Assembly: GCA_002898535.1 (NCBI GenBank)
Contig: BEHN01000001.1
Coordinates: 261,564 to 325,563 of the forward strand
Direction of reading: 5' to 3'
Source of the DNA: a bacterium HR11
GTDB taxonomy: Bacteria; Acidobacteriota; HRBIN11
DNA length: 64,000 bases
Each line of letters starts with the position of its first letter. The stretch's first letter is position 1. Position numbers and translations under genes: made by a program. Shown here in pieces: positions 50,143-55,595 of this stretch. Under the pieces are notes generated by a model. That model made no database searches, was not told the origin of the DNA, and saw only the letters and a list, made by a program, of their open reading frames with translations.

Positions 50143-50916
50143 TCACTCCGTCACTTCATCGCTTACGGACTCCTGCACGGTTCGGGTCGGGAGCGTCGGT
50201 CCCCGGAGGTGAACGGGCTCGGCGGCGGCCCGGAGCCGGAGGTTCAGGGCCTCGACGAAGAGCGAAAAGCCCATCGCAAAGTAAATGTAGCCCCGCTCGA
50301 TATGGCGGCCCAGGCCCTCGGCGACCAGCATGACGCCGATCAGCAGGAGGAAGCTCAGGGCCAGCATCTTAACCGTCGGGTGCCGCTCGATGAACCGATG
50401 GACGGCCTCGGCGCTGACGAGCATGACGCCAATGGCCAGGACGATGGCCGTCACCATGACCCACACTTGGCGGGCCATCCCGACGGCCGTGATGACCGAA
50501 TCCAGGGAGAATACGACGTCGATCAGAGCGATCTGGACGACGACCCCCACGAGAGACCCCGTCTGCGGGGCCGACCGTGTCCCGGCGGCCCCCTCCAGCT
50601 TATCGTGAATTTCATACGTGCTCTTGGCGATTAAGAACAAACCGCCCAGGAGCAAGATGAGACTCTGTCCGGAGACGGGCGTGTCGAGAACAGGCAGGAC
50701 AAACAGGGGCTTTGTCAGCCGCATGATCCAGGTCAACGTAAACAGGAGCGCCAGCCGCGTGACGAGAGCGGCCAAGATGCCCAACCGGCGGGCAAGGGGT
50801 TGCCGGTCTCGGGGAAGCCGACCCGAGACGACCGAGATGAATACGATGTTGTCGATCCCCAGGACGACCTCCATGGCCGTCAGGGTCGCCAAGGCGATCC
50901 AAGCCTCGATTGTCAC
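50143..50916 (-). CDS. TerC-family integral membrane protein
   Basis: A GTG start at 50916 is preceded by gaggagagg. It reads VTIEAWIALATLTAMEVVLGIDNIVFISVV (TerC signature), with ~7 TM helices. The 404-aa listed ORF overlaps ribD and is rejected. Confidence 0.75.
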   Translation of the reverse strand: MTIEAWIALATLTAMEVVLGIDNIVFISVVSGRLPRDRQPLARRLGILAALVTRLALLFTLTWIMRLTKPLFVLPVLDTPVSGQSLILLLGGLFLIAKSTYEIHDKLEGAAGTRSAPQTGSLVGVVVQIALIDVVFSLDSVITAVGMARQVWVMVTAIVLAIGVMLVSAEAVHRFIERHPTVKMLALSFLLLIGVMLVAEGLGRHIERGYIYFAMGFSLFVEALNLRLRAAAEPVHLRGPTLPTRTVQESVSDEVTE

Positions 50917-50929
50917 ACCTGTCCTCTCC

Positions 50930-52039
50930 TCATAAGCAGTCAGTGTCGGCCCGTTCCAGGACGCACAGCCAGTCATCGTCCAGGGGGCAAAGATTACGGA
51001 GTCGCCATCGCAGAGGACCCGTCGCCCAGGTGTCGAGATAACTCGCCAGGCCGAGGCTGTGGACGTCGCCGAAGACGGTCGGGGCGACAAACAGCCACAT
51101 CTCGTCGGCCCGGCCCTCGGCCAAAAAGGACGAAAAGACCCGGCTTCCGCCCTCGACGAGGAGCCGGTGGACGTCGTAGTCGGCCAAGCGTCGGAGGACG
51201 GCGCCCAGGTCGAGGTACCCGGGCGCCGTCGTCGGGGCGCCCTCGTAGCGAATGAACTCCGGCCCGGTCGGCGGCGTGCGGGCGGCGTCGTGGAAGACGA
51301 CCGTCGGGGCGGCGACCCGGAAGACGGGGTGGTCCGGCGGCAGGGAAAGGTCTGCATCGAGAAAGACCCGCCAGACGGGCTTATCGGGGACCAGCCGGGG
51401 CAGGCGGGGCCGGAGGTCGGGGGCGTCCAGGTCGGCCGTCCGGGCCCCGACGAGGACGGCGTCGCAGGTCGCCCGCAAATGGTGGACCCACGAGCGAGTG
51501 CGTTCCGACGTGATCCACAAGCGCCGACTGTCGGGCCGGGCGATCCGGCCGTCGGCCGTCAGGGCCGCCTTCAGGACGACCCAGGGACGGCGGGCCTGAA
51601 CCCACGTCGTGAAGCCCCGCAGGAGGTCTTGCGCCTCGGCCTCCAGGACGCCGACCTCGACGTCCAGGCCGGCCCGTCTCAGGGTCTCGACGCCCCGGCC
51701 GTGGACCCGGGGATTGGGGTCGAGGGTCGCGACGACGACACGTCCGACGCCGGCCTCGAGGATGGCGTCCGTGCAGGGCGGCGTTCGGCCGTGGTGACAG
51801 CAGGGCTCGAGTGTCACATAGAGGGTCGCCCCCCGCGCCCAGCGGCCGGCTTGGCGGAGGGCCCAGACTTCGGCATGAGGCGTCCCGGCCCGGACGTGGA
51901 AGCCCTGGCCGACGGCCCGGCCGTCCCGGACGACGACGGCCCCGACGGGCGGGTTCGGGGCCGTCGAGCCGAGGCCCAGGCGCGCCAGCCGCAGGGCCGC
52001 CGCCATCCAGAAGGCGTCGGAAGTCCGATGCCCGGCCAC
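50930..52039 (-). CDS. ribD: Bifunctional riboflavin biosynthesis deaminase/reductase
   Basis: CMP/dCMP deaminase zinc motif (HAEVWAL ... PCCHHGRTPPC) followed by the RibD C-terminal reductase domain. Confidence 0.9.
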   Translation of the reverse strand: MAGHRTSDAFWMAAALRLARLGLGSTAPNPPVGAVVVRDGRAVGQGFHVRAGTPHAEVWALRQAGRWARGATLYVTLEPCCHHGRTPPCTDAILEAGVGRVVVATLDPNPRVHGRGVETLRRAGLDVEVGVLEAEAQDLLRGFTTWVQARRPWVVLKAALTADGRIARPDSRRLWITSERTRSWVHHLRATCDAVLVGARTADLDAPDLRPRLPRLVPDKPVWRVFLDADLSLPPDHPVFRVAAPTVVFHDAARTPPTGPEFIRYEGAPTTAPGYLDLGAVLRRLADYDVHRLLVEGGSRVFSSFLAEGRADEMWLFVAPTVFGDVHSLGLASYLDTWATGPLRWRLRNLCPLDDDWLCVLERADTDCL

Positions 52040-52046
52040 AGCGCCG

Positions 52047-53156
52047 TCATTCGCTGTGGGGCCGGATCTGGAAGCGCTTCTCGAGGTCCTTCATCCGCTC
52101 GACGATGCCGCCGTATTCGAGCTCCTCGTAGGGGAGCATGGCGGGGCCGAAGAAGCCCTGCCGCCGGAGCTCGAGGGCCTTCTCGGCGATGCGGTCCTGG
52201 ACCGACCGCCAGAACGGATGGTCGAAGGGGTCGGCCGCCTCGGTGAACTTCCCCTTGTGGACGCACAGGGCGTGGCAGGTCACGATAGGCGGTCCGTCGA
52301 AGTACGAGACGTGCGTGTTGTGCGGGACGGGCATCAGGGGGCCGTTATGGGACCCCCGCATGAAGCCGGCGACGTAGTGCCCGATGGCGAAGGGGGCCAG
52401 CACTTCGCCAGCCGCCGGGAAGTCGCCCTGGACGCGGACGATCATGACGGGGTCGTCCTTGCCGACGTACTTGCCGGCGATGTTCCGAAGCCGGCTCGTG
52501 CTGACGACGGCGGCCTGCTCGCCCGTGGCCCGATTGTAAATGGCTTCGATGGAGAAGCGCTCCGTGTCCCGGAGCAGGGCGGCCAGGTCGTAAAGGTCTT
52601 CCGGCGTGTTCAGCTCGATGATACGGTCGGCCTCCGTGTAGTTGACGTCCATGACGACGAACTTGAAGCCCTTGCCCAGCTTGGGGCTGAGGATCAGGCC
52701 CGAGCAGAACATGGGGTCGGCGAAGGCCAAGTACAGCGGCAGGTTGTAAGCCCCGGGGCTCGTCTTGTCGGCGGCAAAGAAGAGGAACGGCTCGTTGGGT
52801 CGTTCCTCGAACTCGATCTCGGCGACCATCGGGCCCATGCCCCGGACGTTGCCGGAGAAGGCGTCTTTCAAGAGGTCCTGGCCGGCCCCGTAGAGGCCCT
52901 GGGCCTTGGCGACCTGCGTCCCCTTCATGAAGGCCTCGAAGGCCAGCTTGTGGACGTCGGCGTCGTTGGGGCCCCGGTGATGGGCCATCAGGATGGCGAT
53001 GTCATCGCCCGTATAGCTGACGTAGACGTCCGAGATCAGGTCCCGTCCGTTTTCCCGGACGTACCCCTCGACGGTCTCCAGGAGGGCCCGGGAGGGCTTG
53101 ATGTGGCCGCCGATACTGCCGATATCGGCCTTGATGACCGACAGCGTCGTCTTCAT
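52047..53156 (-). CDS. Bifunctional fructose-1,6-bisphosphate aldolase/phosphatase (class V FBPase, archaeal type)
   Basis: The ATG at 53156 has a perfect gaggagg SD. It reads MKTTLSVIKADIGSIGGHIKPS ... YVSYTGDDIAILMAHHRG ... highly colinear with archaeal/deep-branching FBPA/P. The upstream in-frame extension is rejected. Confidence 0.85.
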   Translation of the reverse strand: MKTTLSVIKADIGSIGGHIKPSRALLETVEGYVRENGRDLISDVYVSYTGDDIAILMAHHRGPNDADVHKLAFEAFMKGTQVAKAQGLYGAGQDLLKDAFSGNVRGMGPMVAEIEFEERPNEPFLFFAADKTSPGAYNLPLYLAFADPMFCSGLILSPKLGKGFKFVVMDVNYTEADRIIELNTPEDLYDLAALLRDTERFSIEAIYNRATGEQAAVVSTSRLRNIAGKYVGKDDPVMIVRVQGDFPAAGEVLAPFAIGHYVAGFMRGSHNGPLMPVPHNTHVSYFDGPPIVTCHALCVHKGKFTEAADPFDHPFWRSVQDRIAEKALELRRQGFFGPAMLPYEELEYGGIVERMKDLEKRFQIRPHSE

Positions 53157-53317
53157 CGTCGCCTCCTCGAATTGATGGGACTGGCCGACGTCGGCCCGGT
53201 CGGGGGCCTGAGCCGACGGATGGCCGGAACGGTCCCCCCAGGACGTAGGCAAGACCATTGTATCGGAACCCATGTCCGATTGCAACCTTTCCCCGAGAGT
53301 CCTAAACTTATCTCGGT

Positions 53318-54015
53318 GGGGGCGAACAGGTTTCGACGGAGGTGCGTGGGAGGACAGGCGGCATGCCGTGGGCCTGTCCGCTCGTCAACTGGACAGGGGC
53401 CAATAAGTGCCAACACCGATCTCGCCCTGGCGGCTTAACCGATAGCCGTCACGCCGCCAGACGGGCGCCCGTCCCGTCTGGGCCGGTGTCACATCACGGG
53501 CTCGGGCGCCGGGTGCGCCTCGGTCCCGGTGCCGAGATCGAAGGGGCTGGTCCTCGCCTTGACCCTGCCCGTCGGGGCCGGCGAGGACGAGAGGTAAAAG
53601 ACGGGCTAAGCATGTAGAAGCCTGTCCGACTGGCCTCCGGACGCGGGTTCGATTCGTGAGGGGTTATAGCGCGCAGGTTCGAAGGCTGTCAATTCGCGGC
53701 TATAACCCCGGAGTCGCCCCACATAGCAATATGTGGGTGAAAACGGGGCTCACATCGGCGAAGCCTACGGCCACCGAATGGCTATGGTAACGCCGAGGGG
53801 TCGGAAGGGGGCCAACCCCAGGCCGGCCCTGTAGAGACTCATCGGCCCGCCGGCCTGGACCGGGTGGGTGGGTCCGAGGAGCGTAGCGGATTGGGAAGAA
53901 ACTTGACGGCTACGCTAAGACGCCCCGCATCCTCGGTCCCGGGAGGGACTCGGGGATGAAGGCATAGTCCAGCCCAGTCCGAAAGGACTGGAGTGCTGTC
54001 CCGCCGCCTCCACCA
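53318..54015 (+). ncRNA. ssrA: tmRNA (ssrA) interrupted by a ~347-nt intervening sequence in the T-loop; mature length ~351 nt
   Basis: 5-prime GGGGGCGAACAGGUUUCGACGGAGG (acceptor and D-analog region). Tag ORF gcc aac acc gat ctc gcc ctg gcg gct taa encodes ANTDLALAA at 53409-53438. The 3-prime region GACGGGCUAAGCAUGUAGAAGCCUGUCCGACUGGCCUCCGGACGCGGGUUCGAU ends at 53651. UCCCGCCGCCUCCACCA resumes at 53999. The acceptor stem GGGGGCG/CGCCUCC has a G3-U wobble (Ala identity). Confidence 0.85.
53652..53998 (+). other. Intervening sequence within the tmRNA T-loop (group-I-intron-like; alternatively a processed IVS)
   Basis: The 5-prime exon ends with U and the insert ends with G. It contains R-like (GUAGAGACUCA) and S-like (CAUAGUCC) elements in the right order, flanking a P8-like hairpin (gcgtagcgg ... 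ggctacgc), plus a GNRA-capped hairpin (cagtccgaaaggactg) just before the terminal G. No clean P1 pairing with a U-G at the splice site could be found. Confidence 0.4.
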
Positions 54016-54110
54016 AAATATCCGGGTCCTGGGTCTTGAAGGTCCCGAGGGAAGCGACCGACGGCCAGACCGTATCTCCCGGGCAGGGACGTTCTTTGAA
54101 ATCGTCGGGC

Positions 54111-55595
54111 ATGTGGCGTGAGGTCCTGATCACCCAGCTCGGCTCGGAGGCCCTGGTGGCGGTCGTCGAGGACGACCGCCTCGTCGAGTTCCATGCCGAC
54201 GAACCTCAGGGTTCCAGTCTGCTGGGTAATATCTACAAGGGCCGGGTCAAGTCGATCCTGCCCGGTATGGACGCCGCCTTCATCGACATCGGCGAGCCCC
54301 AGGACGGTTTCCTTTATATCGCCGACGTCCGCCCCGTCGTCGCCCGGCTCCTGTACGGCGACACGGATGGTCTACCGGCCGGCCGTTGGAGGCGCCCCCA
54401 GCATATCGGGGACGTCCTTCATGAGGGTGACGAAGTCCTCGTCCAGGTCAAACGGGACCCCATCCAGTACAAGGCTCCCCGAGTCTCGACCAAGATTACC
54501 CTGACAGGCACGTATCTGGTTTACACGCCCGTCCAGCCCCACGTCGGCGTTTCATCCCGCATCACGAATCCTCAGCGCCGTCAGCACCTGAAGGCGCTCG
54601 GTCGGGCCTGGGCCGCCGGCCGGGGCGGCCTCATCTTCCGGACGGCCAGCGCCGCCATTCCCGACGAGACCCTGGAGCAGGAATGGCGGAGCCTGCAACA
54701 GACATGGCAGAAAGTCCTTCGGCTGGCTCGGTCCCGCCCGGCCCCGTGCTTACTGTACCGAGAACCGCCGACCCTGCTCCGCTTGATCCGGGACCTGGTC
54801 AATCCGGGCCTTCGCCGCATCTGGGTCGATTCCCCGAACCTCTACCGTTGGCTCCAAGAGCAGTTGGGCGAACACCATCCCGAGTGGCTTCCCTACCTCC
54901 AGTTGTATACCGACAGCTCGCCCCTCTTTTACCGGTACCAGATCCACCGGGAACTCCAGCGGATCTTGAAGCCCCGGGTGTGGCTGAAGTCCGGCGCTTA
55001 CCTGGTCATTAATCAGACGGAAGCCCTCGTGGCCATCGACGTGAACACGGGGAAGAATACCGGCCTAACGGACTTCCAGGACAGCGTCTTTCGGGTCAAC
55101 CTGGAGGCCGTCGGGGAGATCGTCCGCCAGATCCGCCTTCGAAACCTCGGTGGGCTCATCCTGATCGACTTCATCGATATGACCTCGCCGGAACACTGGC
55201 AGAAGCTCCGAGAGGTCCTGGAGGCCGAGCTCAAGGGGGACCGGATGCGGACCTACATCCTCCCCCAGTCCAGCACGTCCCTCGTCCTCCTGACCCGTCA
55301 GAAGGCGCAAGCCTCCCTCCTCCATCACCTGGGTCAGGTATGCCCCCGATGCCACGGTCGGGCCTTCGTCTACAGCCCCCGGGTCATCGCCTGGGAGGTC
55401 ATCTGGAAGCTGTCCCAAATCAAGAAGGGTCTCTTTCAGCGGGCCGTCGTCCGGGCTCATCCCCGGGTCATCGAGCTCCTCCGGGGGCCTTACCGGGAAA
55501 ACTTGCGGACGATCTGCCGCCAGATCCGGGCCGAGGTCGAACTCCGGGAAGACAGCAACCTGGCGTGGGAATCCTACGACCTGACGTTTCATTAG
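54111..55595 (+). CDS. rng: Ribonuclease G / RNase E-family endoribonuclease
   Basis: S1 domain (GNIYKGRVKSILPGMDAAFIDIG), DNase-I-like catalytic region (ALVAIDVNTGK ... GGLILIDFIDM) and Zn-link CPRCHG. The start is taken at the ATG at 54111 (MWREVLITQ), because the listed ORF start at 54036 would overlap tmRNA. Confidence 0.85.
   Translation: MWREVLITQLGSEALVAVVEDDRLVEFHADEPQGSSLLGNIYKGRVKSILPGMDAAFIDIGEPQDGFLYIADVRPVVARLLYGDTDGLPAGRWRRPQHIGDVLHEGDEVLVQVKRDPIQYKAPRVSTKITLTGTYLVYTPVQPHVGVSSRITNPQRRQHLKALGRAWAAGRGGLIFRTASAAIPDETLEQEWRSLQQTWQKVLRLARSRPAPCLLYREPPTLLRLIRDLVNPGLRRIWVDSPNLYRWLQEQLGEHHPEWLPYLQLYTDSSPLFYRYQIHRELQRILKPRVWLKSGAYLVINQTEALVAIDVNTGKNTGLTDFQDSVFRVNLEAVGEIVRQIRLRNLGGLILIDFIDMTSPEHWQKLREVLEAELKGDRMRTYILPQSSTSLVLLTRQKAQASLLHHLGQVCPRCHGRAFVYSPRVIAWEVIWKLSQIKKGLFQRAVVRAHPRVIELLRGPYRENLRTICRQIRAEVELREDSNLAWESYDLTFH

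Follow-up and report, generated by a model that had tools for sequence, protein, structure and literature searches.

A predicted group I intron in the T-loop of the tmRNA gene of the thermophilic bacterium HR11

tmRNA is present in nearly all bacteria, and its gene occurs in standard, permuted, and "intron" forms (PMC11915505). Its intron form was originally discovered in Clostridium botulinum (Williams 2002, which is reference 11 of PMC11915505), and a 2025 tmRNA database holds 883 unique sequences of this form from 21 phyla, with one catalogued case in the Acidobacteriota (PMC11915505). Most of the catalogued introns lie at T-loop position 7, the previously known site; they are described as self-splicing, and a homing endonuclease is found in only 4.1% of them (PMC11915505). 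For the tmRNA_intron model of the same authors, the lowest known member scores 225 bits and the length is at least 500 bp (PMC11915505). Two tmRNA introns with annotated structure are included in the supplementary alignment (gpI.sto) of a preprint (10.1101/2020.01.27.920355).

Two other systems invite comparison with the locus described here. The group I introns of bacterial tRNA anticodon loops (cyanobacterial tRNA-Leu(UAA), tRNA-fMet), like the element that we predict, are small, splice themselves, and interrupt a loop of a tRNA-like domain whose flanking stem brings the exons together, and the published alignment includes them in one model with the tmRNA introns; they differ in that they occupy the anticodon loop, which is missing from tmRNA, and that most are without P7.1 and P7.2. 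The permuted two-piece tmRNAs of Alphaproteobacteria, some Betaproteobacteria, and Cyanobacteria likewise come from a non-standard gene and build their tRNA-like domain from separated segments, but their order is circularly permuted and the pieces stay unligated, whereas the HR11 gene has the standard order and its insert is predicted to be a ribozyme.

Continuous cultures at 65 and 70 °C, inoculated with mat from a subsurface geothermal stream, yielded HR11, a "Fischerbacteria" metagenome-assembled genome (MAG) (PMC5877337). Among named genomes, Acidobacteriota MAGs are its closest relatives, and HRBIN11 is a GTDB class within the Acidobacteriota (PMC11778308) that is tied to HR11 by name only. 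We analyzed a 64-kb stretch of this genome (the window), in which a sequence-only reading had noticed a split tmRNA gene. That reading held interrupted tmRNA genes to be very rare, with one clostridial case known and none described for such an organism. This premise is outdated in view of the catalogue, whose single Acidobacteriota instance may be the HR11 gene itself. Compared with the known intron-form genes, the HR11 gene differs in its host, a thermophilic "Fischerbacteria"/Acidobacteriota lineage.

The interrupted ssrA gene

The whole split gene spans 698 bp (53318-54015), which exceeds the 500 bp length criterion of tmRNA_intron. The sequence-only reading had placed the interruption in the T-loop and had proposed running a tmRNA model over the locus; the outcome bore it out. 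The Rfam model RF00023 matched 53326-53656 of the intact gene with 125.5 bits (gathering score 47), so that the curated threshold was passed despite the missing 3' end, and the last 14 model positions (3' T-stem strand and acceptor strand) were unmatched. ARAGORN reported no tRNA and no tmRNA in the intact 64-kb window. When 53654-53998 was cut out exactly, it called a complete 353-nt tmRNA with both tRNA-like domains (at 1-27 and 315-353 of the spliced gene) and with the tag ANTDLALAA-stop that had been read earlier, at 92-121 of the gene; the call was also obtained with nearby removal offsets. The tRNA-like domain, with an acceptor stem of 7 bp that includes the G3·U70 pair noticed in the earlier reading, a T-arm, and CCA, is complete only after removal of the same segment.

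The presence of an insert in the T-loop thus stands, and its span does not: it had been given as 347 nt at 53652-53998, but the T-loop segment UUCGAU ends at 53653, and the insert is therefore 53654-53998, or 345 nt. A TC dinucleotide (2 nt) is repeated at both junctions, which makes three boundaries formally possible. Of the three, only 53654-53998 leaves a U at position -1 and lets the insert end in G. Joining the exons there restores the T-loop UUCGAUU, and the resulting 3' end, GGACGCGGGTTCGATTCCCGCCGCCTCCACCA, is identical in the uninterrupted genes of the 6 relatives compared. The coordinates of the gene and of the elements within it are collected in Table 1.

Around the gene, we found no consensus promoter for ssrA and no intrinsic terminator. 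On the minus strand, a match to a sigma-70-like promoter lies at 53285-53257 and is consistent with the fructose-1,6-bisphosphate (FBP) aldolase/phosphatase gene, which is upstream of ssrA on that strand. A mechanical open reading frame of 460 aa (52056-53438, plus strand) runs antisense through that gene and ends in the tag frame (...ANTDLALAA*). We rejected it as a gene and regard it as a high-GC artefact, one that a naive gene caller could report.

Table 1. Positions in the window of the ssrA exons and of the predicted intron elements, with the evidence for each
Feature	Position	Strand	Evidence or remark
ssrA exon 1	53318..53653	+	RF00023 125.5 bits; ARAGORN on spliced sequence; alignment to uninterrupted relatives
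Exon 1 parts: acceptor 5' strand GGGGGCG, tag-coding region, pseudoknot region	within 53318..53653	+	
Tag frame GCC AAC ACC GAT CTC GCC CTG GCG GCT TAA (ANTDLALAA*)	53409..53438	+	ARAGORN; tag of L128 identical
T-stem 5' strand GCGGG	53643-53647	+	part of ssrA exon 1
T-loop nucleotides 1-6, UUCGAU	53648-53653	+	end of ssrA exon 1
P1 5' strand CGAU/UC (slash: 5' splice site; U53653 is -1 U)	53650..53655	+	minimum-free-energy folds
Predicted 345-nt group I intron at T-loop position 7, after U53653, ending in omega-G53998	53654..53998	+	covariance model R1
50-nt hairpin in loop L1 (P1 extension)	53660..53709	+	11+3 bp stem inside P1 (fold)
Internal guide sequence GGAGUCG	53710..53716	+	P1 by fold; P10 inferred from sequence
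P10 candidate: GGA with exon 2 UCC	53710-53712	+	inferred from sequence
P1 3' strand GAGUCG, G53713 opposite U53653	53711-53716	+	folds
P2, 8 bp, GCAA tetraloop	53718..53737	+	fold; all 8 family pairs change on both sides (helix 3)
P3 5' strand CGGGGC (partner 53922-53927)	53744..53749	+	covariance model alignment; family pair 72:285
P4 (UCGGCG/CGCCGA), P5, P5a	53755..53796	+	fold; covariance model alignment; covariation helix 5
P6 and P6a	53797..53830	+	fold; covariation helices 7 and 8
J6/7 and P7 5' strand (R box GUAGAGACUCA)	53831..53841	+	helix 9 covariation; published annotation in gpI.sto
P7.1	53842..53877	+	fold -27.1 kcal/mol, z -3.3; P7.1 position of family model
P7.2	53880..53916	+	fold; columns 239 and 276; six family pairs covary (helix 11)
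P3 3' strand GCCCCG	53922..53927	+	sequence; covariance model alignment
P8, GGGA tetraloop	53928..53958	+	fold; covariation helix 12
J8/7 and P7 3' strand (S box AAGGCAUAGUCC); AGUCC at 53966-53970	53959..53970	+	family covariation
P9, 7 bp, GAAA tetraloop, then AGUGCUG to omega-G53998	53974..53991	+	fold; six pairs covary (helix 13)
ssrA exon 2	53999..54015	+	sequence; alignment to relatives; ARAGORN on spliced sequence
Exon 2 parts: T-loop nucleotide 7 (U), T-stem 3' strand CCCGC, acceptor 3' strand CGCCUCC, ACCA	53999..54015	+	

Structure and family of the insert

The insert had been suspected of being a group I intron on account of an R-like box (GTAGAGACTCA, 53831-53841) and an S-like box (GGCATAGTCC, 53961-53970), and both boxes are where they had been seen. 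P7 pairs G53834 and G53836-U53839 with 53966-53970 and leaves A53835 bulged. Each helix of the intron folds in isolation. We found no homing endonuclease, the longest plus-strand open reading frame inside the intron being 44 aa, and in this the element is like 96% of the tmRNA intron family (PMC11915505).

The sequence-only reading could not build a convincing P1 with a U-G pair. We recovered P1 in both the whole-region and the local folds as 6 bp between CGAU/UC and GAGUCG, with the pair U53653·G53713; it was overlooked because a 50-nt hairpin interrupts loop L1. The covariance model described below placed P1 inside this hairpin (53697-53716), a spurious, local pairing to which we prefer the one that includes the splice site (53650-53655). 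In the C. botulinum tmRNA intron, the two P1 strands, CGAUUC and GAGUCG, are identical to those of HR11. That intron is reported to splice itself in vitro, and the subgroup assignment is IA3.

Loop L1 has 55 nt in the HR11 intron versus 2-26 nt (median 5) in 114 relatives, and its hairpin, which is absent from all gammaproteobacterial tmRNA introns compared, is the sole feature that sets the HR11 copy apart from its relatives. Shorter L1 hairpins are present in other introns (L078 and Tpc1.fMet). The 64-kb window contains no further copies of the 50-nt hairpin or of its stem, so that nothing in it points to a repeated mini-element. When metagenomes were scanned for the L1-insert variant (GTTCGATTCGTGA N{35,65} GGAGTCGCC), no other intron that carries the hairpin was found; the two matches lay in apparent coding sequence, had no match to the family model, and were set aside as chance. 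The long L1 may affect the docking of P1.

The apical part of the hairpin, GCGCAGGTTCGAAGGCTGT, contains the classic T-loop consensus GGTTCGAA (within 53660-53709), and this apical part is similar to the T-arm of the tmRNA itself, GCGGGTTCGATTCCCGC, located 15 nt upstream. The similarity may have arisen by chance, may mark a T-loop structural module, or may be left over from a partial duplication of the site of insertion.

Of the two annotated tmRNA introns, Tsu4.tmRNA from Thioalkalivibrio (gpI.sto) showed 78% identity to the HR11 insert over 258 columns, with an alignment score of 278 compared with 127 +/- 7 for shuffled sequence. Between the HR11 insert and Tsu4 there is no difference in the R box, the S box, J2/3-P3-J3/4 (UGAAAACGGGGCUCACAUCGG), or P3'-P8 (GCCCCGCAUCC). 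We then have a broader sample from a scan of 185,579 species genomes with a pattern of the R and S boxes, which gave at least 120 loci, one per species genome (L006-L125); the taxonomic spread obtained in this way is a minimum, and the sample favours Gammaproteobacteria. Among the matches listed, the hosts are mostly Gammaproteobacteria, especially Steroidobacteraceae, and also include a Bacillota MAG and a Bipolaricaulota MAG. In 114 of the listed loci the intron comes after the 5' half of a T-loop (GGTTCGAT), and the 3' T-stem strand, the acceptor strand, and CCA follow it in all 119 of the listed loci that have a downstream flank. The intron ends in CUG in 114 of 114 relatives.

The introns of Thioalkalivibrio, Steroidobacteraceae, and other Gammaproteobacteria in this sample are 76-88% identical to that of HR11 over aligned columns with the L1 insert removed. 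Their hosts belong to another phylum, and the 3' strand of P1 is GGGUCG or UGGUCG in them versus GAGUCG in HR11. The HR11 intron is also longer (345 nt versus 270-308 nt in 114 collected relatives) because of its 50-nt L1 hairpin and of longer P7.1 and P8. With the intron-form tmRNAs as a class it shares the host gene, the insertion after UUCGAU, the U·G pair at -1, the omega-G, and the helix order P1-P2-P3-P4-P5-P6-P6a-P7-P7.1-P7.2-P3'-P8-P7'-P9.

Introns of the Tsu4 type are very common in soil and sediment gammaproteobacterial MAGs, including Steroidobacteraceae. The 2025 catalogue counts 159 instances from Pseudomonadota (PMC11915505), a figure similar to the at least 120 species representatives that one narrow pattern recovered, and the present number of Pseudomonadota tmRNA introns is probably above those 159.

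To an alignment of 63 introns that were pairwise less than 88% identical (A2), from which the HR11 window was left out, we transferred the published P1-P9 annotation. The P1-P9 structure was 90.1% paired in this alignment, compared with 36-41% when partners were slid by 1-3 columns; 38 pairs had changed on both sides, and double-change cells numbered 527 observed versus 171 expected. None of 500 shuffles reached the observed pairing and covariation values. Covariation was strong in P2, P6, P6a, P7.2, P8, and P9; pair 72:285 of P3 switches between GC and AU in 24 sequences, and all 63 relatives keep the splice-site U·G (columns 4:34).

A covariance model built from this alignment (R1, window excluded) had a single match in the 64 kb, at 53697-53998, with 219.3 bits and E of about 1e-79 over the full model length. 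The HR11 intron agrees with the family at 99 of 101 invariant columns, 23 of which were preset by the search pattern and carry no independent agreement. The two mismatched columns (239 and 276) form one P7.2 pair, in which HR11 has a compensatory change from U-A to G-C relative to the 63 relatives. The general Rfam model Intron_gpI (RF00028), to which the earlier reading had pointed for confirmation, gave no match in 53250-54100 at E <= 10. This negative carries no weight because that model is nearly blind to the tmRNA intron family: on three undoubted relatives it scored 33.6 bits, 23.9 bits, and nothing, against a gathering score of 50.

The score of the family model, the homology to published tmRNA introns, and the covariation among relatives all support the group I reading. 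We conclude that the HR11 ssrA gene very probably represents the known intron form of tmRNA, with a 345-nt group I intron that lacks a homing endonuclease between T-loop nucleotides 6 and 7.

Uninterrupted relatives and other explanations

The ssrA gene is flanked upstream by the FBP aldolase/phosphatase gene (minus strand) and downstream by a gene for an Rne/Rng-family ribonuclease; the proteins of both flanking genes match GenBank entries of "bacterium HR11" exactly. The wider neighbourhood (50143-55595) is kept in relatives, with genes for a TerC-family protein, a RibD-like deaminase/reductase, and the class V FBP aldolase/phosphatase (minus strand), then ssrA and Rne/Rng (plus strand). We sampled relatives at syntenic loci in which RNase G is 90-97% identical. 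Ten of them (L003, L004, L128, L130, and L131-L136) have in the corresponding intergenic space a tmRNA gene without interruption, 352-353 nt long, that scores 167.6-176.6 bits on RF00023, versus 125.5 for the split HR11 gene, and model R1 detected no intron at any of the syntenic loci. The tmRNA of the closest relative (L128, GCA_030550225.1) is 96.6% identical to the spliced HR11 gene, has the same tag, and contains no insert. A more distant genome (L005, RNase G 68% identical) has no tmRNA beside that gene and has lost synteny, and we discarded it as uninformative on the intron. The uninterrupted genes of the syntenic relatives identify the insert as a discrete, lineage-specific addition at a defined site.

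In the closest relatives, the CCA of the tmRNA is followed immediately by a tandemly duplicated sequence, AAAATATCCG AAAATATCCGGG (L128 1394-1420; L129, L137, and L138 1-50), where HR11 has a single copy, AAAATATCCGGG (54016-54030). L129, L137, and L138 are independent Logan contigs whose position 1 falls within the T-arm of the tmRNA (GCGGGTTCGATTCCCGCC...), in the very region where HR11 has its intron. These breaks could reflect populations that differ in the presence of the intron, or repeated T-arm k-mers.

How far do these data leave room for other explanations of the split gene? The sequence-only reading had itself offered an RNase III-type intervening sequence, cut out without ligation to leave a two-piece tmRNA. 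Two-piece tmRNAs exist, and the insert is rich in long helices; they come, however, from permuted genes (PMC11915505), and the Rfam model tmRNA_permuted (RF04321) made a partial match of 31.4 bits to the HR11 gene (threshold 47), the order of which is standard. Together with the full-length match of the insert to R1, the conserved catalytic core, and the -1 U and omega-G at its ends, this leads us to reject the proposal, which has next to no chance of being correct. Equally hard to credit is the view that the split reflects chimeric assembly, or the junction of a genomic island, at the tmRNA gene. It is true that genomic islands often integrate at such genes (PMC11915505), that the source genome is a MAG, and that 3 Logan contigs of relatives begin inside the T-arm. 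But an independent Logan assembly (L001) carries the identical whole gene with its intron, a second run (L002) has the first 448 nt and so crosses the exon 1-intron junction, there is no integrase, only 345 nt separate perfectly matching exon halves, and the flanking gene order is as in the relatives.

It also seems quite unlikely that the element is a dead relic, a member of the intron family that no longer splices (for example because the L1 insertion disturbs P1) and that leaves the host with a pseudogene or dependent on another copy. An L1 of 55 nt in place of the at most 26 nt seen in 114 relatives would fit such a relic, as would the absence of the intron from 10 of the 10 close relatives examined, and the case for splicing of the HR11 copy is indirect. 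Decay is nevertheless hard to reconcile with a core that keeps 99 of the 101 invariant positions and whose sole change is compensatory, with the preservation of the U·G pair, the omega-G, the bulged A of P7, and every helix, or with exons that are fully tmRNA-like and 96.6% identical to the closest intronless gene. L1 hairpin insertions are known from the L078 and Tpc1.fMet introns, and the near universality of tmRNA in bacteria (PMC11915505) also argues against loss of the gene product. The state of the core and exons suggests that the HR11 copy splices.

With the insert read as a group I intron, its restriction to HR11 among the syntenic genomes suggests a recent, lineage-specific gain, for which recent horizontal transfer into the HR11 lineage is the most likely route. 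A more elaborate scenario, which we regard as doubtful, combines a very recent horizontal gain from a gammaproteobacterial-like donor pool with an adaptation of the fold to 65-70 °C through the L1 hairpin and the longer P7.1 and P8.

Predicted splicing path and implications

We infer that the precursor would splice itself by the standard two-step pathway of group I introns. The ssrA precursor would be transcribed as a single RNA of ~700 nt, and its intron would fold to the P1-P9 core, with P7.1 and P7.2 between the 5' strand of P7 and the 3' strand of P3. P1 would present the 5' splice site as U53653·G53713, and a free guanosine bound in P7 would attack after U53653. With exon 2 held by the guide sequence through P10 (UCC with GGA), the freed 3'-OH of U53653 would attack after omega-G53998. 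Ligation would yield the T-loop UUCGAUU and a 353-nt tmRNA, which would then have its ends processed, be charged with alanine, and act together with SmpB in trans-translation.

The kind of element is well known, its insertion site is the commonest one, and its host phylum has one catalogued case. What is particular to the HR11 copy is the thermophilic host, the probably very recent gain (relatives with tmRNA identity of up to 96.6% are without the intron), and the long P1 extension. For annotation, the locus matters because ARAGORN misses the HR11 tmRNA entirely and Rfam gives a truncated gene and no intron, so that the HR11 genome would look as if it were without an intact ssrA. Because very close relatives differ in whether they carry the intron, mobility in the absence of a homing endonuclease can be studied against clean empty sites. 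The element is otherwise of modest interest for the growth of its host at 65-70 °C and for its unusually long P1 loop extension, with a possible effect on folding or thermostability. The L1 hairpin is GC-clamped and unique, and in the adaptive scenario, if that is true, it would keep P1 and the core folded at 65-70 °C; the HR11 intron would then be a natural thermostable variant of the tmRNA intron ribozyme family.
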